DNA of 64,000 nucleotides from a virus. Position numbers and translations under genes: made by a program. Below the pieces are notes generated by a model. That model was not told the origin of the DNA, ran no database searches, and was given only the letters and a program-made list of their open reading frames with translations. This document shows, in pieces, positions 15,668 to 64,000 of the stretch (position 1 is its first letter; the number at the start of each line of letters is the position of its first letter). Location: positions 25,843 to 89,842 of IMG/VR virus record IMGVR_UViG_3300043570_000998. One strand, written 5' to 3'.

Positions 15668-16318
15668 ATGAGTGCAATTAAGGGATTAAAAAATCTAAAC
15701 GCCCTACTCGAAAAACCAAAGTTCGAAGGAACAAAAGTTCGTTGGCTTAAGCTTGCTGACGGACAGTCTGCTGCGATTCGTTTCGTAGAAGAACTAGATG
15801 CAGATTCACCCTACTACGATGAAAGTCGTGGAGAGGCTTGTGTATTTGCAGAGCACACCAACCCAAAGGACTACAAGCGTAAAGCTGCTTGTACAGTGGA
15901 TTCGGAAGGTCGCTGCTACGGCTGTGAAATGGCTCGTAAGGAGCCTAAGTCTGGCTGGAGAGCACGTAACCGCTTCTATTGCAACGTCCTCGTTGAAGAC
16001 GGTCTTGAAGACCCTTACGTGGCTGTATGGTCACAGGGTATTTCAAAGCAGTCTGCTGTACCCACATTGATGGAGTACTTTGACGACACCAAGGGTATTT
16101 CAAATGTTGTTTGGAAGATCAAGCGTAACGGTCAGGGAACTGAAACAAGTTACACACTTCTTCCAAAGGGACCTGACACAGAGCCTTTTGACTGGTCAAC
16201 ACACGAGTTCCACAACTTGGAAAACGTTCTTCGTGAGATTCCTTACGCTGAACAGGAAGCATTCTACTTCGGTTTTGATGCTCCATCAATTACCTCAGCA
16301 ACTAATACTGACTGGTAA
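15668..16318 (+). CDS. Single-stranded DNA-binding protein (T4 gp32-like)
   Basis: His/Cys Zn ligands, KIKRNGQGTETSY motif, position between primase and polymerase. Confidence 0.75.
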   Translation: MSAIKGLKNLNALLEKPKFEGTKVRWLKLADGQSAAIRFVEELDADSPYYDESRGEACVFAEHTNPKDYKRKAACTVDSEGRCYGCEMARKEPKSGWRARNRFYCNVLVEDGLEDPYVAVWSQGISKQSAVPTLMEYFDDTKGISNVVWKIKRNGQGTETSYTLLPKGPDTEPFDWSTHEFHNLENVLREIPYAEQEAFYFGFDAPSITSATNTDW

Positions 16319-32047: not shown

Positions 32048-32120
32048 GGTCCTGTAGCTCAGTGGTTAGAGCACTACCCTGTCACGGTAGGGGTCGCCAG
32101 TTCAAGTCTGGTCAGGATCG
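32048..32120 (+). tRNA. tRNA-Asp(GTC)
   Basis: CTACC-CT-GTC-AC-GGTAG arm. Confidence 0.92.
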
Positions 32121-32124
32121 CAAA

Positions 32125-35172: not shown

Positions 35173-35383
35173 CTCTCTAGAACAAATGGAGACCATTGTA
35201 GAAAACAATAAGTCTCTTCTATGGGATGGCTGGAATGTAAAAGAAATTACACAGTCACCAACTGGATGGATGAAGCCAAACGGTGTTTTCCGTAAGGGAG
35301 AATGGTTCGTTCAGAAAAACTACGATCTTAAATATGAAGGTTGGGAGATTCCCAATAAGTTTGTGGGGAATGATGCAAAGTGA
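35162..35383 (+). CDS. Hypothetical protein
   Basis: RBS GGAG, coupled. Confidence 0.55.
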   Translation: MKINSLEQMETIVENNKSLLWDGWNVKEITQSPTGWMKPNGVFRKGEWFVQKNYDLKYEGWEIPNKFVGNDAK

Positions 35384-35654
35384 AAATTGGAAAAATGATG
35401 CACGATGCGAAGGTTATGATACCAACTTATTCTTTGACAAATATGAAGAAGATCTTAATCTTAGAGTAGGGATAGATAATCTTTGTTCGGGCTGTCCTGT
35501 TGCAAGATTATGTTTTGCTACTGGAGTCTCTCAAAAAGGTTGGGGAGTCTGGGGCGGAGTCTATCTTGAAAATGGAAAGATCTCACGAGAATTTAATAGG
35601 CATAGGTCAAAAGCTGATTGGGCTGAGACTTGGAAAAATCTAACAAACGATTAG
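35370..35654 (+). CDS. whiB: WhiB-family transcription factor
   Basis: C...FF...CSGCPV..C...GVWGG. Confidence 0.85.
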   Translation: MMQSENWKNDARCEGYDTNLFFDKYEEDLNLRVGIDNLCSGCPVARLCFATGVSQKGWGVWGGVYLENGKISREFNRHRSKADWAETWKNLTND

Positions 35655-36562: not shown

Positions 36563-36592
36563 AGGTGGGCTATTTCGGTAGCCCACTTTTTA
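36563..36592. terminator. Terminator between convergent operons
   Basis: GTGGGCTA-TTTCGG-TAGCCCAC-TTTTT. Confidence 0.8.
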
Positions 36593-37624: not shown

Positions 37625-38358
37625 TCTGTATACCCCCAACTAATATCATCAGATGTAAACTTCTGCGTTCCATTCCTTCCATCTAAGTGATACGATCTCT
37701 TAATATTCTTTCCTTCATCTGGATAGTAAATCCAAAGTTTACTTTTGTCCCATTTGCGGTCTTGAACATATCCGTGAAAAGTATCTTCAATAAAAGTTTT
37801 TTCTGGAACATTTTTAAGCACCTGTGACCTATAGTAAGAGACAAGGCTAAGGTGTGGTCGTTGACTCCATTGTAATGTTTTTAAAAACCCATCCTCTACA
37901 TTAAACATAAGGTGATAGTGTGGCTCTGGTATTACTGACTCAAAATGAAATCTAATAGTAAAAGCCTTATTAGAATCAATCATATCTAAACAGGCTTGCC
38001 AATCAATAGGTAAATCTGGAGTTAGTGGAGTGTCAGACTCTACATAAAGAAGTGTAGGTGTCTTAATTAAATCAATAGTTCTTTGCATCATACCTGTCTG
38101 ATGTAGATGCTCATCAAATATTATTGGAAGAACGTTGGTCCACTCGTGAAGTGATTTCCACAAGAGTCTGTTTTTAAATTCATCATATCTGTCTTTCCAG
38201 TCCAGCCTCTCGTCTCTAAGACCATCAACCTGAATTATAATTTCATTGTCTGGAAGATGTACACGAATAGTATTGATTGTCTCTTCAATAATGTCGGTAC
38301 TTGGGTGACTTGGAATAACAGATGTAGGTATAATAACTGTGATATCTTTAATGTTCAT
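37621..38358 (-). CDS. Glycosyltransferase (GT-A-like)
   Basis: ITVIIPT..IQVDG..YVESD. Confidence 0.65.
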   Translation of the reverse strand: MNIKDITVIIPTSVIPSHPSTDIIEETINTIRVHLPDNEIIIQVDGLRDERLDWKDRYDEFKNRLLWKSLHEWTNVLPIIFDEHLHQTGMMQRTIDLIKTPTLLYVESDTPLTPDLPIDWQACLDMIDSNKAFTIRFHFESVIPEPHYHLMFNVEDGFLKTLQWSQRPHLSLVSYYRSQVLKNVPEKTFIEDTFHGYVQDRKWDKSKLWIYYPDEGKNIKRSYHLDGRNGTQKFTSDDISWGYTE

Positions 38359-39193
38359 TTATTTGCTCCATTATCTTATATGCAAAATCTCTTTTTTGTT
38401 TGATCCACCAAGACACAGCCCTATGCATATTTGCAGGATAGTCATTTTCTAGTTTTGTGATTAATGAATAAAGTTTCTTCCAATTCTTTATTTGATCTAT
38501 TGGCATATCTTTAAATAAGATTTCCCAAAATCCATAATCTTCACCAACACTACTTATTCTATCAGCAATTGGTAGAGACAACATTTCTAATCCTTCATAA
38601 AATCTAAATGAGTCAATTGTAGCGTTGCCAGCAGGGGCAGGAGCAAATCTAGAAGAAGCCAATAACCTGTAGTAGTCTTTTGGTGTTTCGCCTTGTGCAA
38701 ACTTTTTTGTAAGCTTATAGATTGCGTCTGGAAGCCTCTTTAAGGCTTGTGCAAGCTCTTGCCTACGTCGATGTGTTATTTGACCAGCAAAGTAAATATT
38801 TGTTGTTTTTTCTGGATAGTCTGGAATAACGTTATCTTTGTGGTTTGGGACACCAAGTGGTAGTTTGTTGTACGCTTCGTGTCGAGGGTACGGATACTGA
38901 ACCCAAATCTCTGCATTAGGATGGGAGATCTTATCAACATCAAATGCACCAAGTTCATCTGCTGTAATAAACAGAACAAGTCTTTTAATTTTAGAAAGGT
39001 TCTCATTAAGAACATCTTCAAAACTAATCCACTCAAAACCAGGGACTACAACAAAGGCTCTATCTGCTTCTGGAAGTTTGTTTACTTTGACAACCTCTAC
39101 ATTGTTCCTTGTAAATGCTTCTTGCAAGAATCCAAAGTCCCACTTTTCATCTGGGAAGCCTTTGCCCTTTGGAGTAAAAGAATAAGCTATCAC
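38348..39193 (-). CDS. Exostosin-like glycosyltransferase
   Basis: YFAGQ..Y..LASSRFAPAPAG..SFRFYEGLE. Confidence 0.7.
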   Translation of the reverse strand: MIAYSFTPKGKGFPDEKWDFGFLQEAFTRNNVEVVKVNKLPEADRAFVVVPGFEWISFEDVLNENLSKIKRLVLFITADELGAFDVDKISHPNAEIWVQYPYPRHEAYNKLPLGVPNHKDNVIPDYPEKTTNIYFAGQITHRRRQELAQALKRLPDAIYKLTKKFAQGETPKDYYRLLASSRFAPAPAGNATIDSFRFYEGLEMLSLPIADRISSVGEDYGFWEILFKDMPIDQIKNWKKLYSLITKLENDYPANMHRAVSWWIKQKRDFAYKIMEQINEH

Positions 39194-40146
39194 TTAATTT
39201 CTAGTTCCTTTAAAATTGTTGCCCATCTGTGTTTATATGTATGTTCACCCTTTGCACGTTCGTGTCCAGCAAGCCTAATAGCTTCTCGTTTTTCGTCGTG
39301 TTCAAGGTAGTAGTCAATTTTTTCTTTTAGGTCTCTAATGTTTCCGTGTTCGTAGAACACAATCTCTTCTTTGTCTTTAAAGAAATCGTTAAGCCCCACA
39401 ATATTTGGATAGATTGTAAACCCACCACGACCAGTAGATTCAAACAGTCTATCCGAAGAGTAATATGGATAGTTAAAATTAATGTTTAGCGTGTCACCAA
39501 TTGCAATCTTGCTACGAGCATAAATTCTATTTAACGCATCTCCACGAACTGTTCCTGTATCTCCGTCTCCACCAACGTGAAGAAATCTTTTGCCATAAAG
39601 CTCTCTCAAAGCATTTATGAGTTTTGGGCGGTAGGGATATTCAGGGTGATACCCTCTGCTACCAACAAAGATAACATCATAATCAAACGTACCATCATAG
39701 TCTGGATGAACATAACACTCAGGACCGAAGACTCCAGCAGGAAGAAAGTGACCCTTAACCTTAGTATTCTCGTTAAACCAATCAGCCATTAACTTATCAG
39801 TGGCAAAGAAGTGACCGATGTTTTTATAGAAAGGATCATTCTCAAGATCGTGCTGACGCTTAAGACCAAACCATAAGTCTAAGTGATATGTCATAGTTGG
39901 CACATTAGAATCTTTAAGCTCCTGAAGAATATCTATTCTTTCTTGACCAGGAGTGTTCCATCCGTGAGTATGAACCCAAACAAATAAGTCTGAAGTTACT
40001 GCTTCACGAAGCACTTTGCCCATTGTTGTACCACGTCCCTCTTGGAACTTTACAACTGTATGACCCAATGCCTCTAATGATTTTGCGTGATGATTCTCAC
40101 TGCTAAAATCTACCTGAAAGTTTCCCAGGAACGTAATCTTTGCCAA
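39190..40146 (-). CDS. CgeB-like glycosyltransferase
   Basis: DVIFVGS..YSSDRLFE..EHTYKHR. Confidence 0.8.
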   Translation of the reverse strand: MAKITFLGNFQVDFSSENHHAKSLEALGHTVVKFQEGRGTTMGKVLREAVTSDLFVWVHTHGWNTPGQERIDILQELKDSNVPTMTYHLDLWFGLKRQHDLENDPFYKNIGHFFATDKLMADWFNENTKVKGHFLPAGVFGPECYVHPDYDGTFDYDVIFVGSRGYHPEYPYRPKLINALRELYGKRFLHVGGDGDTGTVRGDALNRIYARSKIAIGDTLNINFNYPYYSSDRLFESTGRGGFTIYPNIVGLNDFFKDKEEIVFYEHGNIRDLKEKIDYYLEHDEKREAIRLAGHERAKGEHTYKHRWATILKELEIK

Positions 40147-41700: not shown

Positions 41701-41993
41701 TGATTCAACCAATAGAAGACAAGGTAGTTATTAAAACTATCGAAGATGCTCAGGTAACAAAGTCTGGCATTATCATTACAGGAGACAAAGAAAAGCCTCA
41801 AGAGGCTATCGTCGTTGCTGTAGGAACAGGTGTCACAACTAAGAATGGCGTACACGTCCCCATCCCACTTGAGGTAGGACAGAAGGTAATCTTTGCAAAG
41901 TACAGCGGTACAGAGGTTCGACACGATGATACAGACTATGTAATCATTTCATACAACGACATTATTGCAGTAATTGAAGGTGAAGAAGATTAA
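41700..41993 (+). CDS. groES: Co-chaperonin GroES
   Basis: PIEDKVV, TKSGIII, VVAVG.G, KYSGTEV. Confidence 0.93.
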   Translation: MIQPIEDKVVIKTIEDAQVTKSGIIITGDKEKPQEAIVVAVGTGVTTKNGVHVPIPLEVGQKVIFAKYSGTEVRHDDTDYVIISYNDIIAVIEGEED

Positions 41994-42678
41994 GATAAGC
42001 GTACTTGATAAAGGCTATGTCCGTCTTGTTGATCAACTAGGTAATGATACATCAGTTGTAAATGCTGCTCGCGTATCATACGATAAAGAGTCTAAGGGCT
42101 TTGACGAGAAAGACGGAAAGCTACTCCACTTCCTCATTCGTGAGGGACATACAAGCCCATTTCGTCACGCTGCTCTAACCTTTGAGGTATACGCACCACT
42201 ATTTGTAGCACGTCAATGGTGGAAGTATGCAGTAGCATCTACACATATTGACGATCAGAATGGATGGAACGAGTCCTCACGTCGTTATATTACTGAGGAT
42301 GAAGAGTTTTATATTCCAGAGCCAGATCAATGGCGTAGCAAAGCTGAGAATAGTAAGCAAGGTAGTGGAGATCCAGTAGATGTAAGCATTGGCACAGACT
42401 ATACAGAAAGTCTCAAAGGTATGATTAGGGTTGGACAGTTTGCTTATCAAACTGCTATAAAGAATGGAATTGCTCCAGAACAGGCACGTCTATTCCTACC
42501 TGCATATGGAATGTATGTACGTTGGCGTTGGACTGTATCTCTTCAGGGTGCTATGACATTTCTTGAACAACGTCTAGGTCACGATGCACAGGTAGAGATC
42601 CAGGAGTATGCTAAGGCAGTTCAAAGTTTAACTAGACAAGCATTCCCTGCAACATTTATGGCGATGGATGGGGTATAA
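41974..42678 (+). CDS. thyX: Flavin-dependent thymidylate synthase
   Basis: NAARVSY, HTSPF, ARQW..NESSRRY, EQARLFLP, AQVEI. Confidence 0.9.
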   Translation: MKVKKIKISVLDKGYVRLVDQLGNDTSVVNAARVSYDKESKGFDEKDGKLLHFLIREGHTSPFRHAALTFEVYAPLFVARQWWKYAVASTHIDDQNGWNESSRRYITEDEEFYIPEPDQWRSKAENSKQGSGDPVDVSIGTDYTESLKGMIRVGQFAYQTAIKNGIAPEQARLFLPAYGMYVRWRWTVSLQGAMTFLEQRLGHDAQVEIQEYAKAVQSLTRQAFPATFMAMDGV

Positions 42679-47065: not shown

Positions 47066-47545
47066 ATGCAAACATTCCTTCCATACGCAGACTTCAATAA
47101 GTCTGCAGAAGTTCTAGATAACCGACGACTCAACAAGCAGATCCTTGAAGGCTATCAAATCCTCAAGGTTCTTGGCAACCCTGACCCTCGTGCTGGATGG
47201 CGTAATCATCCTGCTGTTAAGATGTGGCGTGGTCACGAGTTCTCATTGTTTGGATACGTAATGACTATGGTTGATGAAGCCAAGGCTCGTGGCATCAAGA
47301 CTGATAAGAACGAAGAGAACCTTTGGAATCTTCACGCAGATCGATTCCTTGATTGGGGTGTAGGTGCTCCAGAATGGTGGGGTAACGAAGATAAGATGTC
47401 TCGCATTGTTACTACACACAAAGCTAATCTATATAAGAAAGATCCTATGTACTACCACGAATTTATTGATGCGGTCAATGATACAGACAACAAGCCTTGC
47501 TGCGATACTTGTCAGTACTACTGGGTTACACACGAGGTGGCATAA
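47066..47545 (+). CDS. MSMEG_6728 / pyrimidine-dimer glycosylase-like protein
   Basis: MQTFLPY..LD.RRL.KQ..E..Q...GW.NHPAV.MW.G. Confidence 0.85.
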   Translation: MQTFLPYADFNKSAEVLDNRRLNKQILEGYQILKVLGNPDPRAGWRNHPAVKMWRGHEFSLFGYVMTMVDEAKARGIKTDKNEENLWNLHADRFLDWGVGAPEWWGNEDKMSRIVTTHKANLYKKDPMYYHEFIDAVNDTDNKPCCDTCQYYWVTHEVA

Positions 47546-51076: not shown

Positions 51077-51397
51077 TTGTTTTTCCTTTTGTTGTAAGTT
51101 ATCTTATTATATCAAGATTCGGGGTTTTTGTCAAGAGGTTCGTAAGGGAACTTTGTCATTAGGTGTTCGTATGCTTCGACGATACCTTGCAGGTAGTCAG
51201 AACCTTGTCCATCTTGTAAGACAGACTCTTCCCAATCCTCAAGAACGTCAGGGTATTGATTAGTTATATAAGATAAGATCTGATTATCCATTACAGTTCT
51301 CCTACTACTACCTTGCCAAAACAATCAGTACAAAGATAGTTATAGTCTTCTACATCTGCATACACAGCATAATTGGTACATCCATTTATCTCACACA

Positions 51398-52152: not shown

Positions 52153-52323
52153 CTTACTCCTCGTCCATAAATTTGATGAATGTCTTTATTAGGTTTAGTC
52201 CAATTATAGCATTGAGGTACGACACGGAACTATCGTTCAGCAACTCGTCAATCTTGGTCGTAATCTCTTGCTTGACAGATTCCCTGGATTCTAAAATGGC
52301 ATCCGTAATCATTTCTCTGCTGG

Positions 52324-52823: not shown

Positions 52824-53004
52824 TTCATACCTTTCATTAGGGGATACTTCTATTATACTGCGTACCACCGACATAAAACAAGAGGAATTCGGGTGATTTT
52901 TTTAGAGGTTCGTAATTGATTTTTAATGATTAACTATCTATGTTTAGAAATTTTGGGGCGCAGCTCCTGTGGATAACTTATCCCCAATCGATCCCCCTAG
53001 GGGG

Positions 53005-53031
53005 AGGCAGTTTAGACTGTTGCCTAGCAGT
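53005..53031 (-). ncRNA. H-type pseudoknot motif, copy B
   Basis: ACTG-CT-AGGCA-A-CAGT-CTAAAC-TGCCT. Confidence 0.65.
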
Positions 53032-53037
53032 TAGGGA

Positions 53038-54060
53038 TTAGACTCCCAGCATTACGGAAGCAACGACACGAGCAAGACGGTTCTTCTCTGCCGTGATAGC
53101 AGGGTCAAAACCACTAGCACCAGCCAAGATGTTTTCGGTGTTACCACCACGAGCAGTCCTGTGCCAATCAAGGCGTTCGGTGAGAGCGTTGAGAGTACCC
53201 CACGCCGTTCCTGTAATCGTGTTGTTGAAGTCACCAACATAAATGTCGTTGATGAGGTCAATCTTGTTCTCGTGCTTTTTGAACGAACCCTTGCTATCCT
53301 TTTCAGGAGCAGGGTAAGCGAGAGCAACAATCTGGTCAAACTCTGCCTTTGTGACTTCGGTTTCAATCATAGCGTTAGCCATAATGGAAAACTCGTCAAG
53401 GTAAGTCTGTGCCAAGCCCAATGCTTCACGAGCAACTTGAACCTTACCGTCAGCAGTCTGCGTGTGACGGATTTTGAACGACTGCTTGACATTACGCCAC
53501 TTGCCAACTCCGCCACCAAGAGCAAGGTTGAGAGTGTTAGCACACACAACACGAACAGGCGTGATACTTGCCATAATGGAGATAGAGCCGTCGTGACTTG
53601 TGTTGATGAGTAGGTAGTTGTCAATCTTGTCAGCACGACCATTAGGGTCAAGCGTGATTGAATTGTCAAGAGCAAGCGAGCCAAAGACTACACGACCACC
53701 CTTGATTGAACCAGCGGTTTCCCAACGACCACCACCGTCAAGCAGGTTGTCACCAAAAGTGAACAAGTCCTCGTTTTGGAGAGTGTGGTATCGTTCTCCA
53801 ACTACGCCAAGCACATCATTCTGTGTCTTGTCAAATGGGTTAGTACGGCAGACAAAGTAGTTTGTCTTGTCCGATACATATCCCTCTGGAAATGACAGTT
53901 CTTCCAAACGGACATTCCAATTATCAAGGTGAGCGAGTTTGAGCATTTCGGAAGTCTTTACTTCCTCTTCAAACACAGTACCCAACTTGTGCCAAGCAGG
54001 TTCTCGCAAAGAAGCAAAAGCCACTTCGCCATTAGCACCAATTTCTAAATCGTGAGCCAT
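53038..54060 (-). CDS. DUF932-family (phage/plasmid) protein
   Basis: PAWH.LG, ETAGS..GG, YLL..SHDG, RVVCANTL, GTAWG..NA..E. Confidence 0.85.
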   Translation of the reverse strand: MAHDLEIGANGEVAFASLREPAWHKLGTVFEEEVKTSEMLKLAHLDNWNVRLEELSFPEGYVSDKTNYFVCRTNPFDKTQNDVLGVVGERYHTLQNEDLFTFGDNLLDGGGRWETAGSIKGGRVVFGSLALDNSITLDPNGRADKIDNYLLINTSHDGSISIMASITPVRVVCANTLNLALGGGVGKWRNVKQSFKIRHTQTADGKVQVAREALGLAQTYLDEFSIMANAMIETEVTKAEFDQIVALAYPAPEKDSKGSFKKHENKIDLINDIYVGDFNNTITGTAWGTLNALTERLDWHRTARGGNTENILAGASGFDPAITAEKNRLARVVASVMLGV

Positions 54061-54369
54061 TGTATACCTTTCGTTTTGTTGTTAGTTCTATTATACAGCC
54101 GACCACCGACATATAACTATTTCAGGGAACATTTTGGGAGCTTCGTAACCTAACCGTAATAAGTATGTTCTAACAAATCGGGGGCGCAAATCGATCCCCT
54201 ACCCATACAAAAATCCCCCTGTTTACCAGCAGTCTATCCAGACCACTTCACAGGGGGACTAATGTGTGAAAGTTTATTTTAGTAAAGACCCATCATTTCA
54301 CCGTAGTAACTTCTTTACCTAGACAGTTCCTATATATCAACTGACAACTTCAACCTCTGTTTCAAGGTG

Positions 54370-54441
54370 CGATTTCACAGGGACTCGAACCCTGACTACT
54401 ACTTCGACAGAGTAGCGTGATAACCTTTTCACTATGAAACC
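54370..54441 (-). tRNA. Second, divergent tRNA-Asp(GTC)
   Basis: GGTTTCA/TGAAATC acceptor; CTACT-CT-GTC-GA-AGTAG; CAGGG-TTCGAGT-CCCTG. Confidence 0.8.
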
Positions 54442-54468
54442 TAGTGTATCTCTATGTAGTTTTAGATT

Positions 54469-54496
54469 GGGTAGTTTTATGTGATACCCAGCACAT
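54469..54496 (-). ncRNA. H-type pseudoknot motif, copy C
   Basis: ATGTG-CT-GGGTA-T-CACAT-AAAAC-TACCC. Confidence 0.65.
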
Positions 54497-54501
54497 TCTC
54501 G

Positions 54502-54951
54502 TTAGAGAAGTTCCAGAACCGAATTGTAGGTTGAGGAAGTAACGAACTCTTGCGGAGTAAGACGGAGAAGAGCGAGTGTCTTTTCCAACTCTTGGAGTTT
54601 GCTTGCCGTTCCGCCGTATCCGCTAGGGCTGTTTGGTTCGACAGGTGGCTTTCCCAAGTCAAACTGCTCAATGAGGTTAGCCCCAACTGTCAGGTCTAGA
54701 TTACCGTTGTATCCACGATTTGAGATACGAATGGTGTCTACCCACTCACCCTCAAAGATTTCCTGCCCACCAACAGTAATAATGTTGGCAACCATTTCAG
54801 CAATACGCTTGGTGTAAGCCTTGCGTTCGTACTTGTATTCCTCAACCTTTGTGGGGTATTCAGCGATTTCAGTTTTCAGTTGTGCTACCTTGTCCTCAAC
54901 CATTGTGAGAACACTTGCGGTAGGGATTTTTACAGAGATACTGCGAGCCAT
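54502..54951 (-). CDS. Hypothetical protein
   Basis: RBS GAAAGGA after cassette promoter. Confidence 0.65.
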   Translation of the reverse strand: MARSISVKIPTASVLTMVEDKVAQLKTEIAEYPTKVEEYKYERKAYTKRIAEMVANIITVGGQEIFEGEWVDTIRISNRGYNGNLDLTVGANLIEQFDLGKPPVEPNSPSGYGGTASKLQELEKTLALLRLTPQEFVTSSTYNSVLELL

Positions 54952-55024
54952 TTGTTTAGTCCTTTCTATTGGCTGTATTACTATTATACTGTGGGGGTAT
55001 GACATATAACTATTGAGTTAGAGT

Positions 55025-55051
55025 GGGTAGTTTAGTCTGATACCCAGCAGA
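55025..55051 (-). ncRNA. H-type pseudoknot motif, copy D
   Basis: TCTG-CT-GGGTA-T-CAGA-CTAAAC-TACCC. Confidence 0.65.
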
Positions 55052-55056
55052 TACGA

Positions 55057-55209
55057 TTACTTGGAAGTAACCGTAGTCCAACGAGGCTGTCCAGCAACAT
55101 CAAGACGGACACGGAATGAACCGTTTGCGTTCTTGACAATCTCCTGAACCGTTCCCGAAACACCAGACTTCTGCGTGGTGAGGGTCGAACCGATTTCGAT
55201 TTCCGACAT
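55057..55209 (-). CDS. Small SH3-like protein
   Basis: 50 aa; two tandem upstream promoters (TTGACA-N17-TATAAT 55293-55265 and cassette promoter 55383-55362). Confidence 0.6.
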   Translation of the reverse strand: MSEIEIGSTLTTQKSGVSGTVQEIVKNANGSFRVRLDVAGQPRWTTVTSK

Positions 55210-55483
55210 ATTATTACCTTGCTTCCTTGTAGTGAGCCAACTTGTTGTTTGCTTCGTTATTACCATTATACAGGCTGGGAAAGAGTTTGTCAAGCCTTTT
55301 CTCAAAGTTTTTTATTTATTTTGTGGGGACTTCCGACTTCGTTTCCCTTGCCTGTAATACAAGTATACCAACGACCACCGACATATAACTAATCGAATCT
55401 GGAGATTTTTGTAACAGTTCGTAACTTGTTTGTCATAACAAAGGGGTGCGCAGGTCCACCGATCTTGGCAGGGTACTAAGAAA

Positions 55484-55514
55484 GGACAGTTTATAAAGGT
55501 CATATCCAGGACCT
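55484..55514 (-). ncRNA. H-type pseudoknot motif, copy E
   Basis: AGGTC-CT-GGATA-T-GACCT-TTATAAAC-TGTCC. Confidence 0.6.
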
Positions 55515-55562
55515 ATCACCACTGCAGGAAAGGACAAGAATACTACAGTGGGAGACTAGCGG

Positions 55563-55967
55563 CTATATCTCTTCAATATTATCAACTTCAAATGAGTGAA
55601 CAGTAAAGTCTTCAACCTCAGTATTGAAGGCATCCATTCTAACATCTTCAATTGAAAGGCTGTCAACATCGAAGTTTGAAGGAACCAGCAATGTTGCTTC
55701 CGCAGTAAGAGAAATGCTAACGGTGATTTCTTTCAGGAGCGAGAGAGCAAACACATCGGCAATAGAATTTGCCAAAATATTTACGTCAACGTCTTCACTT
55801 TGCTCAATCGACAAAGCGTCCAAAAGAATCAATCGAACATTCTCCACGTCCTGAGAGTAGTCCTGCTTGATACGGTCATTGTCATTACGAAGTGATTTGA
55901 CTTCAAATTCCAACAACTCAATCTGTCGTCGTAGGTTTGTAAGTACTGGGTGCTGATTGTCTTCCAT
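55563..55967 (-). CDS. Acidic hypothetical protein
   Basis: Coupled ORF. Confidence 0.6.
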   Translation of the reverse strand: MEDNQHPVLTNLRRQIELLEFEVKSLRNDNDRIKQDYSQDVENVRLILLDALSIEQSEDVDVNILANSIADVFALSLLKEITVSISLTAEATLLVPSNFDVDSLSIEDVRMDAFNTEVEDFTVHSFEVDNIEEI

Positions 55968-56227
55968 TAGTTGTCCTCTTCCATTCCACCGATTTCGATA
56001 AGTTCACCAATAGTTGCGGTAAGAGCGGTGAAGTCCTCTTCCGACAGTAGGAGTTCTGACATAGCAAATGCCATAAGCCCTGTGATTGTTTGTCCAAAGT
56101 TATTCAGGGCATAGTTACGCTCGTCTTCTGTTTCTGCTTCCATTACAAGAAAGCCAGCGTACATAACCATAGGGTCTACGGCAATATCTTCACTTACTTT
56201 TCGTAGAGCAAATGCCTTGTCTAACAT
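55967..56227 (-). CDS. Acidic hypothetical protein
   Basis: First gene after cassette promoter. Confidence 0.6.
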   Translation of the reverse strand: MLDKAFALRKVSEDIAVDPMVMYAGFLVMEAETEDERNYALNNFGQTITGLMAFAMSELLLSEEDFTALTATIGELIEIGGMEEDN

Positions 56228-56919
56228 ATTTGTCCTCTCGTTGTTTATATTATAATTATACAGGTGACCTACGACATCAAACTCTGGGAATCTGGACAGT
56301 TAGTCGTAATTCTTAATAACGGTTTGGTAACGAGGTGGGCGCAGCTCCCTCAGTCAGCCATCACCAAACGATGTTCAGCCACAGAGTCATAGATAAATGC
56401 CTTTGGGTAAAAATCCTTGACACCATTCAGAAATAACTCTGCCTGTTCCAAGTGACGGAACGTTGCCAACTTGCCATCGGTGTCGCCATTCCAAACCTGA
56501 TACTTCAATACATAGTCAGTCATTATATTCCCCTATCTCCGTGCTACCCTCAATAAATTCATAGTCGTTTGCGTTGGGGAACTGAGTGTATTCCATATTG
56601 TCCAACACAAAGTCAAGGTCATTAGTGTCCACAACAAATGTGTGATGAACGGTTATTAGATGTTTAGTCATTAGTAGTCCTCTCCGAACATATTCAGTAT
56701 AGCAAGTACCTCGTCTTTTGTCAAGGCTTCGACACGTTCCCAGTCAATTACGTTTTCCCAATTCATTACTTATCCTTTTCTTCACATTGATTACAGTATC
56801 CCCATAGGGCAAATTGTTCACAGTCTTCCATTACTGTTCTCCAAACGTAGGGTCGCAGGGGTAGCAATAAGGCTCTCCCTCGTCACGATTAGTTTCATTA
56901 GCACAAGAGTCACACTTCA

Positions 56920-57192
56920 TTAGTCCTCGTCCTCTAAGAATCCCTCTAAGCGGTGTTGTTCGATAAAAGTCCAAGCGTCTACAAACTGACTGTCACGATA
57001 CGTCACGCCCATTGGCAATTCGATAACCTCGTTGTAGTCACCTTGATTACACGCCACGATTGCGGCGACGGCAGACTGAACCATAAACTGCGGAATAGGC
57101 GGATACACATTAGAGGCAAAGTGAAGACTCACCATATCCTCTAATTGGATATCGCCTAATTCTTTGATACCCTCTACAAACATTCTTCCCAT
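56920..57192 (-). CDS. Hypothetical protein
   Basis: H...N.YPPIP motif; RBS GAAAGGAA. Confidence 0.65.
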   Translation of the reverse strand: MGRMFVEGIKELGDIQLEDMVSLHFASNVYPPIPQFMVQSAVAAIVACNQGDYNEVIELPMGVTYRDSQFVDAWTFIEQHRLEGFLEDED

Positions 57193-57365
57193 TGTGTTCC
57201 TTTCATCGATAGTCTAATTATACAGGGTAGCACCGACATATAACTATGCCAGATACATTTCTACTAGGTATAGGTCCTCGTCGTGCTCAGGGCAGACTGC
57301 TGAATACCCTGGCGATACGCCATAGTAAACAACGGCGGTATCACATCGGTTACAGTATCGTTTCA

Positions 57366-57644
57366 TTAGTGCTTAGCCAGCCATAACTCTATGTTGTTAG
57401 CAATATCCCAGATAGCAAGTTGGTTGTGCTTGTTGCCCAAGTCTATTGCTTCTGTAACATCAGCAACCCATACGGTGCGGTCATAGTAAGTTACGCCAGA
57501 CACAGGATTAGTCCACACGCCCACATACTGCCCCTCTATGATATTTTCAGGGGTAGTGTTATAGAGAGCCACCCAATATCCACTAGTGGCACTAGTGATA
57601 AGAGTAAACTCGTCACCGTCTTTGATATAAGTTCCGTCGTTCAT
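57366..57644 (-). CDS. Hypothetical protein (NQLAIWD family)
   Basis: RBS GAAAGGAC. Confidence 0.65.
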   Translation of the reverse strand: MNDGTYIKDGDEFTLITSATSGYWVALYNTTPENIIEGQYVGVWTNPVSGVTYYDRTVWVADVTEAIDLGNKHNQLAIWDIANNIELWLAKH

Positions 57645-57840
57645 TGTTGTCCTTTCGTTGGTATATCTCCATTATAGCGTGTACCTATGACATATAACTC
57701 TGGGATTTCGGGAAACGAATCGTAAGGTTAGTAATAGAGTTTATTGTGACAGGGAGGGCGCAAAATTTTTGATCCCTAGCTATTGAGCCACGCCAGCAGG
57801 AGGGTTAGTCCTGCCAGCGTAGCAACAATAAGAATTTCCA

Positions 57841-58017
57841 CTACTGTTCGCCATTCCAACAAGCGGAGATGAAACGGTCAGCCATAAACCGTTCATTGTC
57901 CTCTGCCATTATTCCTGCGAAGTCGTGAATGAGAGTGTCAAAAGTATTCTCGTCAATTTTGAGAGCGTAACAGTTGAGCAGTTGTGAGATAGTCACATAG
58001 TCTTTGCGTGTCATCAT
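57841..58017 (-). CDS. Hypothetical protein (MTRKDY..N.RF...RF..AC family)
   Basis: Coupled ORF. Confidence 0.6.
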   Translation of the reverse strand: MMTRKDYVTISQLLNCYALKIDENTFDTLIHDFAGIMAEDNERFMADRFISACWNGEQ

Positions 58018-58214
58018 TAGGATACACTCACCCATTCCATAGCGGTACGCAAAAGGTTGTCATAGTCACCAGACATAGATTGCGTAGTGTATTCGTTGAT
58101 TTTATCTTTGGTAACGCCACCCTTGCGGAGAGCATTGGATACAGCACCCATAATTGCGAATGCGTTTCCGTCTTGTCCTGTGAGTTGTACTTCGATTTCT
58201 GGATACTTTACCAT
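58017..58214 (-). CDS. Hypothetical protein (DGNAFAIMG..SGDYD.LL family)
   Basis: Motif common in phage early regions. Confidence 0.65.
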   Translation of the reverse strand: MVKYPEIEVQLTGQDGNAFAIMGAVSNALRKGGVTKDKINEYTTQSMSGDYDNLLRTAMEWVSVS

Positions 58215-58417
58215 TAGTTGTTTTCCTTTTTTTGGTCGGCAATATAAGTGTTGAGAAAAATCAGTCGTTCCATTGACTCTGCCGAAACGCCTACCGAAAG
58301 AGCACCAGCCAATCTTGCGTAGAATGTGTGATTGTCAGGCTCTTCTGCTCTAATAATTTTACGCAAACGGTCATACTGTTCTTGTGTTGCTGGATTTTCG
58401 GGGAGTGAACCATTCAT
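58214..58417 (-). CDS. Hypothetical protein, paralog of 59771-59959
   Basis: Shared MERLIFLNT. Confidence 0.6.
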   Translation of the reverse strand: MNGSLPENPATQEQYDRLRKIIRAEEPDNHTFYARLAGALSVGVSAESMERLIFLNTYIADQKKENN

Positions 58418-58546
58418 TTTGTTGTCCTTTTCTTTGTTCATATTATTATTATACAGCAGGGGTACGACATATAACTATTCATTTTGGGGAAAACGCAACG
58501 ATCTTCTTAATTACGCAACAAACCTGCGTGGGCGCAGCTCCCCTGC

Positions 58547-59098
58547 CTAGATTGCCGACCCTCTCACGACAATCCAAATCAGAGCCTGTGCGGTGCGAGG
58601 TGTCAGACCAAACTCACCAGCGACCTGAACGACTGCCTGACTAATGGCGTGATACTGTCCCTGCGTAGGGCTGTCGTTTTTCATCTGGGCTGCTCTCATC
58701 ATCCACACATCTACAACCACAGCGTCAGTGTCGCCAGCAATAGCCTTAGCGAATGCGTTAGTTTTGAGACCCTTGAGAGCGTCAATGCCACCTGCCAACA
58801 CATCGTTAGCCATTTTAGTATTGTTCTTTAGACCAGACACAGAGTGTCCAAGCGAGAACGCCACTGCCTTAGTCACGTTAGACGACCAACGCTCACGTGG
58901 GGAGAATGCGGAAACAACGCCAGCACCAATCTCAAGCGAGGCGTTTAGGTTGTGAGCGACTGCCTGTGCCACTTCCTGTGCTTCGTGATACCAGACACTA
59001 GCCTGTTCGACCTGTCCAAGTGTCGCCTTGAGAATGAGCGAACGGAACAAATCCGTAGAGGTAGCGGTTACGATTTCGTTTGCGGTGAGAGTAGTCAT
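58547..59098 (-). CDS. Hypothetical protein, possible HhH DNA-glycosylase-like fold
   Basis: WY..A, SP..W..N, K..AF, VVVDVWM.R, QA..W. Confidence 0.5.
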   Translation of the reverse strand: MTTLTANEIVTATSTDLFRSLILKATLGQVEQASVWYHEAQEVAQAVAHNLNASLEIGAGVVSAFSPRERWSSNVTKAVAFSLGHSVSGLKNNTKMANDVLAGGIDALKGLKTNAFAKAIAGDTDAVVVDVWMMRAAQMKNDSPTQGQYHAISQAVVQVAGEFGLTPRTAQALIWIVVRGSAI

Positions 59099-59247
59099 TA
59101 CTTTGTCCTTTGTTTGGTTGATAGTTCTATTATACATTCGACCTACGACATATAACTAGCAAAATTCCAGGGTATTTTTAATGCTTACGTAATTAAAGCA
59201 AGGATCTAAAATTGCGCCCACCCTGTGCGTAACCTTGGGGATAACCC

Positions 59248-59577
59248 CTAACGGTTAGCGTTGTGGCAACCAGCACACCGACCAGTGGAATCTCCATTGA
59301 GATAGAATAGACCGTTCACAGCGTAGTCGCACACAGCACAGATAGCATACATATCAGGAATGTCCTCGTCAGTGTCACAGTCACACACAGAATAGTTAGA
59401 GTAACAAAACGCACAGATAAGCGACCTGTCCAAGTCCTCGTTGATACATCCGCAGTAAATATACTGAACGCCACAGTTGCCACAGTGAGTAGAGGTGTCC
59501 CAAGCCGACTGAGGCTCTGTGACCATAGTTCCCATAGCCGTCTGGTAGAAATCTGAGTGAGTGTTTGAGTAAGCCAT
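59248..59577 (-). CDS. Cys-rich hypothetical protein
   Basis: Multiple CxxC/CxC motifs. Confidence 0.55.
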   Translation of the reverse strand: MAYSNTHSDFYQTAMGTMVTEPQSAWDTSTHCGNCGVQYIYCGCINEDLDRSLICAFCYSNYSVCDCDTDEDIPDMYAICAVCDYAVNGLFYLNGDSTGRCAGCHNANR

Positions 59578-59770
59578 TTGCTTTTGTCCTTTCGTTATAT
59601 CAACAGTATACCATTGACCACAGACATATAACTCTGGGGAATAGGAAAATGTTTTCTTAATTCGTAAATATGTTATAAAAAATTTTGGGGCGCAAATTTT
59701 GCAAAAATCTTGCGTGGGGAGAGGATTGTTTGCTCTTGCGAGGCTCACCTCTCCCCAAACTTATACGAAA

Positions 59771-59959
59771 CTATTTCGTGTTGAGAAAAATAAGTCGTTC
59801 CATAGCGTCACGCTCTACGCCTACGGTGAGTATTCCCGAAAGTGTTGCGTACAACATTTCGTTATTGTAAGTTGGGTACTGCTCACGAATGAGAGTTTTG
59901 AGTTTCTCGACTTGTTCCGTAGTGGCGAATTGACGAGGGAGAGAATCTGCGTTTGTCAT
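59771..59959 (-). CDS. Hypothetical protein, paralog of 58214-58417
   Basis: Shared MERLIFLNT. Confidence 0.6.
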   Translation of the reverse strand: MTNADSLPRQFATTEQVEKLKTLIREQYPTYNNEMLYATLSGILTVGVERDAMERLIFLNTK

Positions 59960-60013
59960 TTTTGTCCTTTTCTTTGTTATATTTACATTATACCGTAGGG
60001 GTACGACATCAAA

Positions 60014-60178
60014 CTATTCGTTTTCACGAATGGCTTGTGTCTGGATAGCCTTGCGAGTACGCAAACGGTTAGGGCGATTGTCGTGAGTGCCAGCCGCAGA
60101 CGAGCGACGGAGTTCACGCATAGCCTCAATGTATGGCTTATTCTCAATGCCTTTGTGAGTTGGGTTCTTTTTCTTCAT
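60014..60178 (-). CDS. Small basic protein (leaderless)
   Basis: ELRRS.AAG.H..R..R.RTR motif. Confidence 0.6.
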   Translation of the reverse strand: MKKKNPTHKGIENKPYIEAMRELRRSSAAGTHDNRPNRLRTRKAIQTQAIRENE

Positions 60179-60509
60179 AGTATTAGTATACATCAGACCA
60201 CCGACATATAACCCCCCCAATTCGGGGAAACGCAATAATCCTTCGTAACTCGCAAAAATATTGCGTGGGCGCACCCTGTGGATAACTTATACACATTCCA
60301 TTTTTGGCATATGTCGATCCGCCTATTGTTCCAAATAGCACGAGAGGCAAATATCATAGGGGATAAATTCCTTAGACTGCTCGCTTACTTTTCTTCCACA
60401 GTCATTACATTTAGTCATTTAGTTTACCTTCGATTAGCAACGCGATTAGATAGACGGTAGCGAAAATAGTTAGGATAAATCCGATATTGGATATGAGCAT
60501 TCCCATAGC

Positions 60510-60692
60510 CTATCGTTTCATCAACTGACGAGTGAGCGTTAGGGCTTCCTCGAAATCGTGATTCGTGAATACATTACCCTTAGCCAAACGGATAAGAGAA
60601 TTTAGACGGAGAGCCTTTTGCTTAGGCGTGAGAGCGTTGATATTGATATCCTCTGTTTCGTTGATATCAATTTCAATTTCTAATTCATTCAT
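60510..60692 (-). CDS. Hypothetical protein
   Basis: RBS AAAGGAC after cassette promoter. Confidence 0.55.
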   Translation of the reverse strand: MNELEIEIDINETEDININALTPKQKALRLNSLIRLAKGNVFTNHDFEEALTLTRQLMKR

Positions 60693-60746
60693 TTTATTCT
60701 GTCCTTTGTTTATATCTTGATTCTATCAGAGGGGTATGACAGGTAA

Positions 60747-60884
60747 CTAGACTACCTGACCACAACCTGAGCAGTAGAGAGGAGAGAGATATTTTTCTCC
60801 ATACTCCAAGTGTCCAGCAGTAGAACCACATTCACACTTTATAGAGAACCTAGCCACTTGGCAGGTATTCATCCATTCATTCAT
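60747..60884 (-). CDS. 45-aa Zn-ribbon microprotein (not in track)
   Basis: MNEWMNTCQVARFSIKCECGSTAGHLEYGEKYLSPLYCSGCGQVV. Confidence 0.65.
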   Translation of the reverse strand: MNEWMNTCQVARFSIKCECGSTAGHLEYGEKYLSPLYCSGCGQVV

Positions 60885-61092
60885 TTTAGTTTTCCTTTCT
60901 TTTTCTTTCTATATCTTTATTCTAGCAGTGACCTACGACATATAACTAACTATATGGCGTAACATTAGGTAACAGAATGGTAACGAATATGGGGAACTTA
61001 TACGCACCTCGTAACGCTGCCTGTGGATAACTTTTGGGGCGCATTTTCTTGTGCATAACTTATACACACCCCTTGCTAGGGGCGGTAGTTAG

Positions 61093-61233
61093 TTAGTGTT
61101 GCTTACCGCAACCATCACAGTATGAGTATGAGAGATACACTTCACCATATTCTAGGTGAGCACTAGTAGCACCACATTCACAGTTGTAAGAGAATCCGTT
61201 ACCTACTGGGCAACTATTTTTGAATTCATTCAT
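61093..61233 (-). CDS. 46-aa Zn-ribbon microprotein, paralog of previous (not in track)
   Basis: MNEFKNSCPVGNGFSYNCECGATSAHLEYGEVYLSYSYCDGCGKQH. Confidence 0.65.
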   Translation of the reverse strand: MNEFKNSCPVGNGFSYNCECGATSAHLEYGEVYLSYSYCDGCGKQH

Positions 61234-61583
61234 TATTTTCTATCCTTATCTGAAACCTTGATATTTATTTGCTCTGATACTTACTTGCTAGGCTCACCTT
61301 GCGGATTATTTGCTAGGCTCATTATCTGAGGCTCACTATCTTTGGTTTCTCTGTTTATCTTTATATATTTAGTGTAACATCGACCTACGACATATAACTA
61401 CCCAAAACAGGCTAAAAATAGGGAAAACGCAATAATGTTGCGTAAGAGTATAAACAACGCAAGAAAATTTTGGGGCGCAAATTTTTATTTATTTTATTAT
61501 TTATCGGCGTGTCGTTTAGTTAGATGGGGTAGGTAGGTGCTATGCTTATAGTATAGAAAGAAACAAAAGAAAGGAAAACTAAA

Positions 61584-61709
61584 ATGAATGAAATCAAAAA
61601 GTTTGAACAAGATGTTTACTGCACAGATTGCGGTAAGTATGTTGGAACTAGTGTTCACTATGGACAGTATGCTCCAAACTTTACGGGCGAATGCCCTAGG
61701 GGTTGCTAG
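61584..61709 (+). CDS. 41-aa Zn-ribbon microprotein (not in track)
   Basis: RBS GAAAGGAA; MNEIKKFEQDVYCTDCGKYVGTSVHYGQYAPNFTGECPRGC. Confidence 0.55.
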   Translation: MNEIKKFEQDVYCTDCGKYVGTSVHYGQYAPNFTGECPRGC

Positions 61710-61920
61710 TTATTAGGTGGCACTAGTCACCAACTATTAGGTGGCGATAGTGCTAGTTATTAGGTGGCACTAGTGTGCTCACTAATTTAGTGTCCTTTAT
61801 TCTTGTAGATCGTGTATCGTACATCTTTACAAATTATTCAGATTTTGTACAAATCGAATTTATAAAAATTATTCAGATTTCATCGCATACGACAAATAAA
61901 AAAATATTCAGATTTTTGTC
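61704..61920. repeat. Two sets of short direct repeats
   Basis: TATTAGGTGGC x3 (two within identical 24-mers) and A(T/A)TATTCAGATTT x3. Confidence 0.75.
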
Positions 61921-63370: not shown

Positions 63371-64000
63371 ATGAAAACAAATCCTAGAGTAAAGAGCTTT
63401 TTAATAAGTTCTATTATTTTATTTATATTGTTTGGAATGAGTGTATGCTCACCCTCAAACGCCCTGGCAGAAAATATTGATGCTAGTATATCTAGGTCAG
63501 GTCTTGATCGATCTGAAATCCGAGAGACAATTGCTGCTATTGAAGCAGAAAAACAAATTGAATATGAAACAATCTATAATCAAGTTGTGCAAGAAGAAGA
63601 AAGTAGAATTGCTAACCCAGAATCAACGCAATCTAAATTTGTAAAATTTGCACTTAAGTTTGAAGGAACGCCATACTGGTACGGAGGATCTACCCCATCT
63701 GGGTTTGATTGTTCTGGATTTGTAGGATATGTTCTTAAGCACGAGCTTGGAATAAAGTCTAGACATTCTGCTACTGCTCAAATGCAATTGGGTAAGAGAG
63801 TTAAAAATCCTCTACCTGGAGATCTTGTAGGTTTTGGTTACCGCAATCACTTTGGTCATATTGGTATTTATATTGGCAATGGCAAAGTTATTGACGCACT
63901 AAATCCTACTTATGATACTCAAATACGCAGTCTATCTTGGTTAAAAAGATCTGTTGGTCCAGCAGTATTTGTTAGAGTTATTGAACCATACAGAGATTTT
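63371..64000 (+). CDS. NlpC/P60 peptidoglycan hydrolase (runs off window; not in track)
   Basis: RBS AAGGAGG; signal peptide; GTPYWYGG..GFDCSG..GDLV.F..HIGIYIGNG. Confidence 0.9.
   Translation, partial: MKTNPRVKSFLISSIILFILFGMSVCSPSNALAENIDASISRSGLDRSEIRETIAAIEAEKQIEYETIYNQVVQEEESRIANPESTQSKFVKFALKFEGTPYWYGGSTPSGFDCSGFVGYVLKHELGIKSRHSATAQMQLGKRVKNPLPGDLVGFGYRNHFGHIGIYIGNGKVIDALNPTYDTQIRSLSWLKRSVGPAVFVRVIEPYRDF

Follow-up and report, generated by a model that had tools for sequence, protein, structure and literature searches.

Promoters resembling host PafBC boxes in a block of small genes of an uncultured lake phage of actinobacteria

An uncultured lake-water phage of actinobacteria carries, within a 9-kb block of small genes of unknown function, 16 promoters that lack the usual -35 box and instead display, at the exact spacing, the TGTC element that actinobacteria use for genes switched on by PafBC, their single-stranded-DNA alarm protein. 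On sequence evidence alone, the phage probably borrows this host switch, a reading that we consider the best available but only slightly more likely than not. The sites came to attention through an original prediction, made from the sequence of a 64,000-nt stretch (hereafter, the window) of the 89.8-kb phage record, that 15 minus-strand promoters share the geometry of host PafBC (RecA-NDp) DNA-damage promoters. We confirm that the pattern described there is real. The accompanying interpretation, that a block of probable early genes is wired to the host damage sensor or to a phage-encoded equivalent, is only partly supported.

We first asked whether the pattern exceeds chance. TGTC-N12-TANNNT gave 23 matches in the window against 12.7 +/- 3.3 in shuffled sequence, with 0 of 100 shuffles reaching 23. 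Sixteen of the 23 lie on the minus strand between 52203 and 61392 (Table 1)—the 15 predicted originally, including the three given there as examples, whose coordinates were correct, plus one just outside the range considered. Over the whole record, however, the count on this strand (18) is not above that of a reversed-pattern control (25); the signal instead resides in clustering and position, as 16 of the 18 copies fall in 9.2 kb and nearly all are intergenic, whereas the control hits are scattered and the only 4 in the block overlap the promoters themselves. All 16 copies keep TGTC and the spacing, but only 5 have the full TGTCGG, the others reading GT (7), AT (3), or TG (1) at positions 5-6. 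The -10 hexamers are TATAAT (9), TATACT (3), TAGAAT (2), TACACT (1), and, at 52203, TATAAT (1). The heptamer AGTTATA sits immediately upstream in 10 of 16 copies, with close variants in the other 6; it belongs only to this phage's closest relatives, and is not part of the conserved element. None of the 16 passes a sigma-70 scan requiring at least 4 of 6 matches in a -35 hexamer, while three true TTGACA-N17 promoters in the same block (55293, 51134, and 56724) do pass, and perfect TTGACA-N17-TATAAT sites also stand elsewhere at 31914+, 46309+, and 47906+.

Table 1. Coordinates of the promoters and the WhiB-like gene within the window; distances to start codons are counted from the -10
Position	Strand	Feature	Box sequence	What follows
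61371..61392	-	TGTC-type promoter	TGTCGTAGGTC..TACACT	137-nt leader, then the 46-codon zinc-ribbon-like gene at 61233-61093
60919..60940	-	TGTC-type promoter		start codon after 34 nt (45 codons)
60720..60741	-	TGTC-type promoter	TGTCATACCCC sub-type	start codon after 27 nt (60 codons)
60185..60206	-	TGTC-type promoter	TGTCGGTGGTC sub-type	ATG at 60178, 6 nt after the -10; mRNA for the roughly 54-aa gene ending at 60014 predicted to be leaderless
59987..60008	-	TGTC-type promoter	TGTCGTACCCC	start codon after 27 nt (62 codons)
59605..59626	-	TGTC-type promoter		start codon after 27 nt (109-codon Cys-rich protein)
59129..59150	-	TGTC-type promoter		start codon after 30 nt; gene at 59098-58547 is DUF7178
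58448..58469	-	TGTC-type promoter	TGTCGTACCCC	start codon after 30 nt (67 codons)
57671..57692	-	TGTC-type promoter		start codon after 26 nt (92 codons)
57217..57238	-	TGTC-type promoter	TGTCGGTG	start codon after 24 nt (90 codons)
56255..56276	-	TGTC-type promoter		start codon after 27 nt (86 codons)
55362..55383	-	TGTC-type promoter		no gene directly behind it; about 70 nt, then the canonical promoter at 55293-55265
54983..55004	-	TGTC-type promoter	TGTCATACCCCC	start codon after 31 nt (149 codons)
54090..54111	-	TGTC-type promoter	TGTCGGTGGTCGGCTG-TATAAT	start codon after 29 nt; gene at 54060-53038 is DUF932
52852..52873	-	TGTC-type promoter	TGTCGGTGGTAC	start codon after 28 nt (70 codons)
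52203..52224	-	TGTC-type promoter, sixteenth copy, outside the range of the original prediction	TGTCGTACCTC..TATAAT	inside or at the end of a small ORF, 50 nt before the next start codon
55265..55293	-	canonical promoter inside the block, example of the second promoter class	TTGACA-N17-TATAAT
51106..51134	-	canonical promoter	TTGACA-N17-TATAAT	heads the next group of minus-strand genes (51076 to about 49600)
35370..35654	+	WhiB-like gene; marks an actinobacterial host, and candidate partner of sigma region 4

The arrangement of the sites is that of promoters, as 12 of the 16 lie 24-34 nt before a Shine-Dalgarno site and a start codon. To examine whether the element is conserved, we turned to 56 related uncultured phage loci, where the box peaks only at spacing 12 (716 copies on the gene strand, against 55-162 at other spacings from N6 to N18). 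Anchored on the -10 alone, GTC falls at one offset in 80 of 115, 144 of 288, 30 of 114, 36 of 203, and 6 of 21 promoters in the five groups of relatives, and in at most 16 at any other offset, with a TTGACA-type class forming a separate set. The core TGTC(A/G)G stays the same across relatives whose DUF932 protein is only 59-94% identical, while the flanks change, which fits a conserved host reader. Among 650 distinct copies in these loci, 68 have a start codon opening at least 40 codons exactly 6 nt after the -10 and 16 have one at 7 nt, whereas offsets 2-5 and 8-15 hold 0-5 each; this indirect signal implies leaderless mRNAs and would place the transcription start 6-7 nt after TANNNT. One such case lies in the window (60206-60178), and no RNA run holds this DNA. 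The leaderless start codons give a further clue that the hosts are actinobacteria.

The geometry and core sequence equal the published PafBC consensus, tGTCgg(N10)tA(N3)T, which pairs a -26 element with a canonical -10 and has no -35 (PMC8635444). As a cellular control, we searched upstream of recA in sampled Actinomycetota genomes, finding TGTC-N12-TANNNT within 400 nt before the gene in 15 of 24 genomes with an HTH_PafC hit and in 0 of 7 without; the box was also found in 6 of 12 further rhodopsin-bearing genomes, and overall in 21 of 43 recA loci. Likeness to some cellular boxes extends beyond TGTC: of 12 distinct phage 8-mers following TGTC, 4 match a cellular recA box at 7 of 8 or better, and the mean best identity is 5.25 of 8, with 0 of 5000 letter shuffles reaching either value. 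The four best matches nevertheless come from one phage sub-family (RTACCCC), and so count as one or two independent events.

The phage is a distant relative of the Streptomyces BE-cluster phages, which are its nearest cultured relatives, and it carries a WhiB gene, supporting an actinobacterial host of undetermined species. HTH_PafC hits occur in 238 of 301 sampled Actinomycetota and, among the 29 rhodopsin-bearing (aquatic-type) genomes covered by both searches, 15 have a hit at E <= 1e-20. On the contrary, 12 of 16 small (1.3-1.9 Mb) actinobacterial genomes sampled have no WYL gene, such that the reading would fail if the host is a streamlined lineage of this kind, and we could not identify Nanopelagicales among the genomes. 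Searches of the phage record found no WYL domain and no sigma-70 region 2 or 4, and in 5 relatives that are 99-100% complete found no WYL and no sigma-70 region 2. The suggestion in the original prediction that a phage-encoded equivalent lies outside the window is therefore unlikely, and its description of the genes as early rests on inference from the homologous block in the terminal repeats of BE-cluster phages.

Taken together, these observations are best explained if the 16 sites are promoters of the PafBC (RecA-NDp) class, with a good -10 read by the host housekeeping sigma factor, no -35, and, at -28 to -23, the TGTC(R/G) element that the host activator would contact when it sits between the DNA and sigma region 4 ('sigma adaptation'). 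In this view, the phage has no such activator of its own, and the block of small accessory genes would be transcribed when host PafBC is loaded with single-stranded DNA, the likely source being the incoming or replicating phage genome, or damage to the cell. The analysis itself establishes the sites, their position before genes, their conservation in the phage family, and their likeness to cellular recA boxes; that PafBC binds and reads them, that their activity depends on it and on DNA damage or single-stranded DNA, what the trigger is, and that the block is expressed early are inferences. One difficulty is that PafBC is inactive without single-stranded DNA (PMC11804915), which is awkward for genes that would have to be the very first expressed.

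Each of three rival explanations appears less likely. A phage-encoded activator of an unknown fold might re-target host RNA polymerase, as T4 MotA with AsiA does at middle promoters ('sigma appropriation'), in which case the block would be a middle class switched on by a product of the canonical-promoter genes. The phage does have two exclusive promoter classes, and an unrecognized DNA-binding protein could be among the genes in and around the block, as 16 of 20 proteins tested matched no Pfam family and 7 of 10 found none in PHROGs. T4 middle promoters have a similar layout, with a box near -30 about 12 bp from TAnnnT, and a parallel between PafBC and MotA/AsiA has itself been drawn (PMC8635444). 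However, searches of the record for MotCF and AsiA homologues, weak in that neither had a positive control, found none; the lack of a detected WYL domain or sigma factor also weighs against this possibility, as do the identity of the box to the cellular recA box, including bases beyond TGTC, and its constancy across very divergent relatives, whereas a co-evolving phage factor would be free to drift.

Somewhat less likely still, host RNA polymerase with its housekeeping sigma factor might read the sites unaided as -35-independent promoters, with TGTC either an operator for a repressor or simply inherited because one promoter cassette was copied many times. Consistent with this, the -10 hexamers are near-perfect, 6 of 16 copies have T-15 G-14 and 11 of 16 have G at -13, more distant relatives show TGcTA (an extended -10), and the three sub-families of boxes, together with the AGTTATA flank found only in close relatives, indicate cassette copying. 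Yet copying within one genome does not explain an identical core at an identical offset in five divergent groups of relatives whose flanks differ, nor the same box before cellular recA genes, and a repressor site would not need a single fixed distance from the -10. Finally, we regard as very unlikely that the phage's own WhiB-like protein, close copies of which are mostly viral, directs the polymerase to these promoters: although WhiB-like proteins bind region 4 of the principal sigma factor, they are not known to read a specific box such as TGTC, and the cellular recA boxes were found only in the genomes with PafC-type genes (15 of 24 against 0 of 7).

PafBC-type promoters are known only as the cellular DNA-damage regulon of actinobacteria, and our literature searches found no paper describing them in a phage. 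If phages carry arrays of them, infection itself would be read by the cell as a single-stranded-DNA signal, the phage would turn the host's alarm into its own gene switch, and the class of 'sigma adaptation' promoters would extend to viruses. A bolder possibility, which we hold tentatively and consider slightly less likely than not, is that a whole, widespread family of large actinobacterial phages, including lake phages like this one and, in weaker form, the cultivable Streptomyces BE-cluster phages, uses PafBC as the obligatory switch for its accessory-gene block, with the phage's own entering or replicating DNA triggering the alarm; the 16-30 strong boxes on a multiplying genome might also soak up PafBC and so blunt the host's damage and defence response. 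This would be the first virus known to exploit sigma adaptation. The idea is amenable to testing in cultivable systems, as Samisti12 and Coruscant on Streptomyces carry the same box and pafBC mutants exist in mycobacteria, and the finding also provides a sequence signature that marks one gene class in hundreds of uncultured lake phage genomes.

Among known systems, the PafBC-dependent promoters of Mycobacterium, Streptomyces, and other Actinobacteria (PMC8635444, PMC6789036, PMC8223512) share with the phage sites a TGTC element at -28 to -25, exactly 12 nt before a TANNNT -10, an invariant GTC triplet, and the absence of a -35, and box variants such as TGTCGTACCCC, TGTCACACCCC, and TGTCAGTGG are shared with cellular recA promoters; the phage sites differ in standing 16 in a row before small genes of unknown function rather than before DNA-repair genes, in their near-perfect TATAAT -10, and in the small number with full TGTCGG. 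The terminal repeats of the BE-cluster phages Samisti12 and Coruscant, which infect PafBC-bearing Streptomyces, contain a homologous block of small leftward genes that includes the DUF932 gene (54-55% identity), with TGTC exactly 12 nt before the -10 in 5 and 6 promoters, respectively, against 0-2 at other spacings. Those promoters, which no paper we saw mentions (the word 'promoter' occurs 0 times in PMC7650747), keep a TTG at -35 next to the TGTC and a TAGACT or TAAGCT -10, such that TGTC may act together with sigma region 4 rather than in its place, while other promoters in the same repeats are plain TTGACA or TAGACA types. T4 middle promoters likewise form a phage class in which an upstream box replaces the -35 at a fixed short distance from a normal -10, next to a class of ordinary promoters, but there the reader is phage-encoded, whereas the box here equals a host box. 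Lastly, the arrays of strong early promoters in the terminal redundancy of SPO1- and T5-like phages are similar in comprising many closely spaced promoters, each before one or a few tiny host-takeover-type genes, but are ordinary housekeeping-sigma promoters with a -35.

Read on the minus strand, the stretch 62000-52000 is a row of small genes, and it is within this row that the promoter-like element is concentrated. The pattern TGTC-N12-TANNNT occurs 23 times in the window against 12.7 +/- 3.3 in shuffled sequences; sixteen of the 23 lie on the minus strand between 52203 and 61392, while the other seven are scattered over both strands, as chance predicts. The original prediction, which described fifteen phage promoters with the geometry of host PafBC promoters, is thus borne out as an observation, with one further copy found just outside the range it gave. 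AGTTATA stands directly before TGTC in ten copies and close variants stand there in six, whereas the twelve bases between TGTC and the -10 fall into three sub-families—GGTGGTC, GTAGGTC, and (G/A)TACCCC—that average 59% GC in a 40% GC window. Twelve copies lie 24-34 nt before a Shine-Dalgarno site and a start codon that opens 45-340 codons, one lies 6 nt before an ATG, one is followed by about 70 nt and a perfect TTGACA-N17-TATAAT promoter, and two have longer leaders. None of the 16 has a -35 by the criterion of the promoter scan used, though three ordinary promoters in the same block do, and further perfect ones stand elsewhere in the window.

Coordinates of individual promoters, genes, and repeats (window positions)
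Feature	Position	Strand	Description
Sixteenth TGTC-type copy	52203-52224	-	Just outside the range of the original prediction
TGTC-type promoter and predicted leaderless gene	60014-60206	-	Promoter at 60206-60185; ATG at 60178, 6 nt after the -10; basic protein of about 54 aa
Tandem promoters	55265-55383	-	TGTC-type promoter (55383-55362), about 70 nt without a gene, then a perfect TTGACA-N17-TATAAT promoter for the 50-codon gene at 55209
Perfect TTGACA-N17-TATAAT promoters	31914, 46309, 47906	+	
Near mirror repeats	54116, 56281, 57243, 58474	-	Upstream TTATATGTC (TTTGATGTC in one of the four) and downstream CTGTATAAT
Recurring cassette elements	52900-61500	-	Upstream of about 10 of the 16 promoters: GCGCC(C/A) followed by an A/T run, DnaA-box-like 9-mers, and TTACG; GCGCC at 66-102 nt upstream
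Direct repeats	61690-61800	-	Several copies of a motif of about 20 nt containing GCCACCTAATA, just upstream of the block
Two pairs of small paralogous genes	61093-61233 and 60747-60884; 59771-59959 and 58214-58417	-	One pair has paired-cysteine (zinc-ribbon-like) motifs, the other shares an ...ERLIFLNT ending; each gene has its own TGTC promoter
Second tRNA-Asp(GTC) gene	54369-54441	-	Alone inside the promoter block
Other tRNA-Asp(GTC) copy	32048-32121	+	In the tRNA cluster
Pyrimidine-dimer DNA glycosylase (T4 endonuclease V type), ThyX, and a cluster of glycosyltransferase-like genes	47066-47545, 41974-42678, 36590-40146	+, +, -	Glycosyltransferase-like genes on the opposite strand
Repeated ends of the record	63860-64000 and the record start		First 138 or so bases of the 89,842-bp record recur at its end

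To test whether these counts reflect a simple enrichment, we compared them with the pattern read backwards. Over the whole 89.8-kb record the minus-strand count is 18, while the reversed pattern gives 25, and the total is therefore not above this control. However, the backward hits are scattered, with only four in the block, all on top of the promoters themselves, whereas 16 of the 18 true hits sit in 9.2 kb; the signal is therefore in clustering and position, not in total number. In four promoters, the sequences on either side form a near mirror repeat, which is why the reversed pattern also hits them. The cassette elements that recur upstream lie at variable distances from the promoters, and we do not count them as part of the promoter. 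The direct repeats just upstream of the block could be an origin, a packaging site, or a binding array, and the gene-free stretch between the tandem promoters could be a small RNA or a regulatory leader.

The window is bases 25843-89842 of an 89,842-bp virus record. The repeated ends of this record mean that the assembly is circular or closes on a repeat, although IMG/VR lists it as linear and 83% complete. Its DNA was found in lake-water metagenomes from many studies; among 24 runs, all lake-water or unspecified metagenome DNA, none was an RNA run. A megablast search against cultured phages found no close DNA relatives. At the protein level, the DnaE-type polymerase and the DUF932 protein of the block are 54-56% identical to those of the Streptomyces BE/BK-cluster phages of the family Stanwilliamsviridae, and the record carries a WhiB gene, a family that was detected only in Corynebacterium among the control genomes searched. 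The host is therefore an actinobacterium, though one that we could not resolve further. In the cultured phages Samisti12 and Coruscant, the DUF932 gene lies in a block of small leftward genes at the genome end, and for Coruscant a 12-kb terminal repeat has been described (PMC7650747); this is the only basis for inferring that the block examined here is early.

Several approaches to the host did not narrow it. A WhiB search of genome contigs returned only 8 phage-like contigs binned into unrelated MAGs, a protein atlas gave viral WhiB clusters, phage DNA compared with 5 small actinobacterial genomes matched only tRNAs at 77-85% identity, and the strict box in 5 small genomes was near the control count. 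Rhodopsin, used as a marker of planktonic actinobacteria, was found in 0 of 16 small genomes (a search without a positive control) and in 38 of 401 in the wider sample; of those 38, GC was measured at the recA locus of 14 (two in the first recA comparison described below and 12 in the further set), and all 14 were at or above 0.52, such that acI/Nanopelagicales could not be picked out. Published work on Nanopelagicales phages describes unrelated 39-kb phages (PMC10202952), PMC12143481 was not informative on this point, and a literature search for Nanopelagicales with proteasome or pupylation found nothing relevant. We also rejected phage GC as a guide to host GC, as Coruscant has 48% GC against 72% in its host (PMC7650747), and the low GC of this phage thus does not point to a low-GC host.

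We next examined the element across related phages. A scan of IMG/VR with AGTTATATGTC-N12-TANNNT was not informative, giving mostly single chance hits, but the DUF932 protein retrieved 56 related loci from IMG/VR at 59-94% identity. On the gene strand of these loci, TGTC-Nk-TANNNT counts 716 at k = 12 and 55-162 at every other k from 6 to 18, with no peak on the opposite strand. Anchoring only on a -10 followed by a ribosome site and start codon, without asking for TGTC, we found that GTC sits at one offset in 80 of 115, 144 of 288, 30 of 114, 36 of 203, and 6 of 21 promoters in five groups of decreasing relatedness, and at most 16 times at any other offset; TTGACA-like hexamers at a 17-bp spacing make up a second, separate class. 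The flanks differ between groups—AGTTATA-TGTCGGTGGTC here, and AAATGTC.G, AAATGTCAGTCCC, and TTGTCAGACC in others—whereas the core TGTC(A/G)G stays the same. In a complete relative, about 22 copies are packed into one 15-kb stretch on one strand. Three other cultured phages with a DUF932 gene, Pipefish, Weasels2, and Karp, show no excess at N12.

Although no RNA data exist for these promoters, the sequences give an indirect reading of where transcription would start. Among 650 distinct copies in the 56 loci, a start codon that opens at least 40 codons lies exactly 6 nt after the -10 in 68 and 7 nt after it in 16, an arrangement that thus recurs 84 times, while offsets 2-5 and 8-15 hold 0-5 each; a second broad mode at 24-33 nt corresponds to genes with a ribosome site. 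A start codon at the predicted first transcribed base means a leaderless mRNA, and leaderless mRNAs are common in actinobacteria. This fits a start 6-7 nt after TANNNT, a point on which the original prediction had said it could fail.

Which factor reads the box must be inferred. Six-frame searches found no WYL domain and no sigma-70 region 2 or 4 in this record, and no WYL and no region 2 in five relatives that are 99-100% complete. The proteins of the block are a DUF932, a DUF7178, one PHROG family of unknown function, and small proteins that match no family. A conserved host factor therefore explains the data most simply, and PafBC is the only described factor with this box and this geometry, a reading that we consider slightly more likely than not. 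It is weakened by the unresolved host, particularly as 12 of 16 small actinobacterial genomes in the sample have no WYL gene and our marker tests did not reveal which of these, if any, belong to the abundant lake lineage Nanopelagicales. PafBC also needs single-stranded DNA to act (PMC11804915), and any trigger during infection is pure inference. Among the alternatives, an unrecognised phage activator working like T4 MotA/AsiA seems unlikely, no MotCF or AsiA having been found in searches that lacked a positive control; somewhat less likely still is that unaided housekeeping polymerase uses these -35-less promoters, with TGTC as an operator or a copied relic, and we regard it as very unlikely that the phage WhiB directs the polymerase by acting on sigma region 4.

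Taken together, the sites themselves are real and fit the PafBC class on every sequence criterion that we could test, whereas their reading by PafBC remains inferred—plausible, and testable in cultivable relatives, but not shown—so that the interpretation offered in the original prediction is only partly supported. Searches of the literature on PafBC with phage, on RecA-NDp, and on 'sigma adaptation' with bacteriophage promoters, supplementary files excluded, found no paper describing PafBC-type promoters in a phage, and searches on Streptomyces phage terminal repeats and on a Coruscant transcriptome gave nothing relevant; a study by Rafique et al. 2025, cited in PMC12848934, reportedly concerns PafBC and mycobacteriophage resistance.

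Finally, we compared the phage element with its closest known counterparts. In the terminal repeats of the cultured Streptomyces BE-cluster phages (examined within bases 1-14000 of Samisti12 and 1-16000 of Coruscant), promoters of the form TTGnnn-n-TGTC-N12-TA(G/A)(A/G)CT occur in 5 and 6 copies, respectively, with spacing 12 only, an arrangement of which we saw no published mention. TGTC at the same offset there stands beside a TTG at -35, which also weakens the PafBC reading, and the element there may work with sigma region 4 rather than in its place. In cells, the in vivo PafBC motif is given as tGTCgg(N10)tA(N3)T, in promoters with a canonical -10, a PafBC-specific element at -23 to -28, and no -35, and with read-out of the two guanines of the GTC triplet by PafB (PMC8635444). 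This motif has been equated with the RecA-NDp motif and extends to other Actinobacteria (PMC6789036, PMC8223512); a fuller form, tTGTCRgtg-N8-TAnnnT, was reportedly given by Gamulin et al. 2004. To examine the cellular motif with the same methods, we sampled Actinomycetota genomes, of which 238 of 301 have an HTH_PafC hit. TGTC-N12-TANNNT lies within 400 nt before recA in 15 of 24 genomes with such a hit and in 0 of 7 without, and was also found in 6 of 12 further rhodopsin-bearing genomes. Of the 12 distinct phage 8-mers after TGTC, 4 match a cellular box at 7 of 8 or better, with a mean best identity of 5.25, and 0 of 5000 letter shuffles reach either figure, although the four matches belong to one phage sub-family and the number of independent events is therefore one or two. 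Reversed 8-mers, and the eight bases nearer the -10, show no such likeness. The cellular boxes include TGTCGTACCCC, TGTCGTACCTG, TGTCACACCCC, TGTCAGACC, and TGTCAGTGG, which are the same variants seen in this phage and its relatives.
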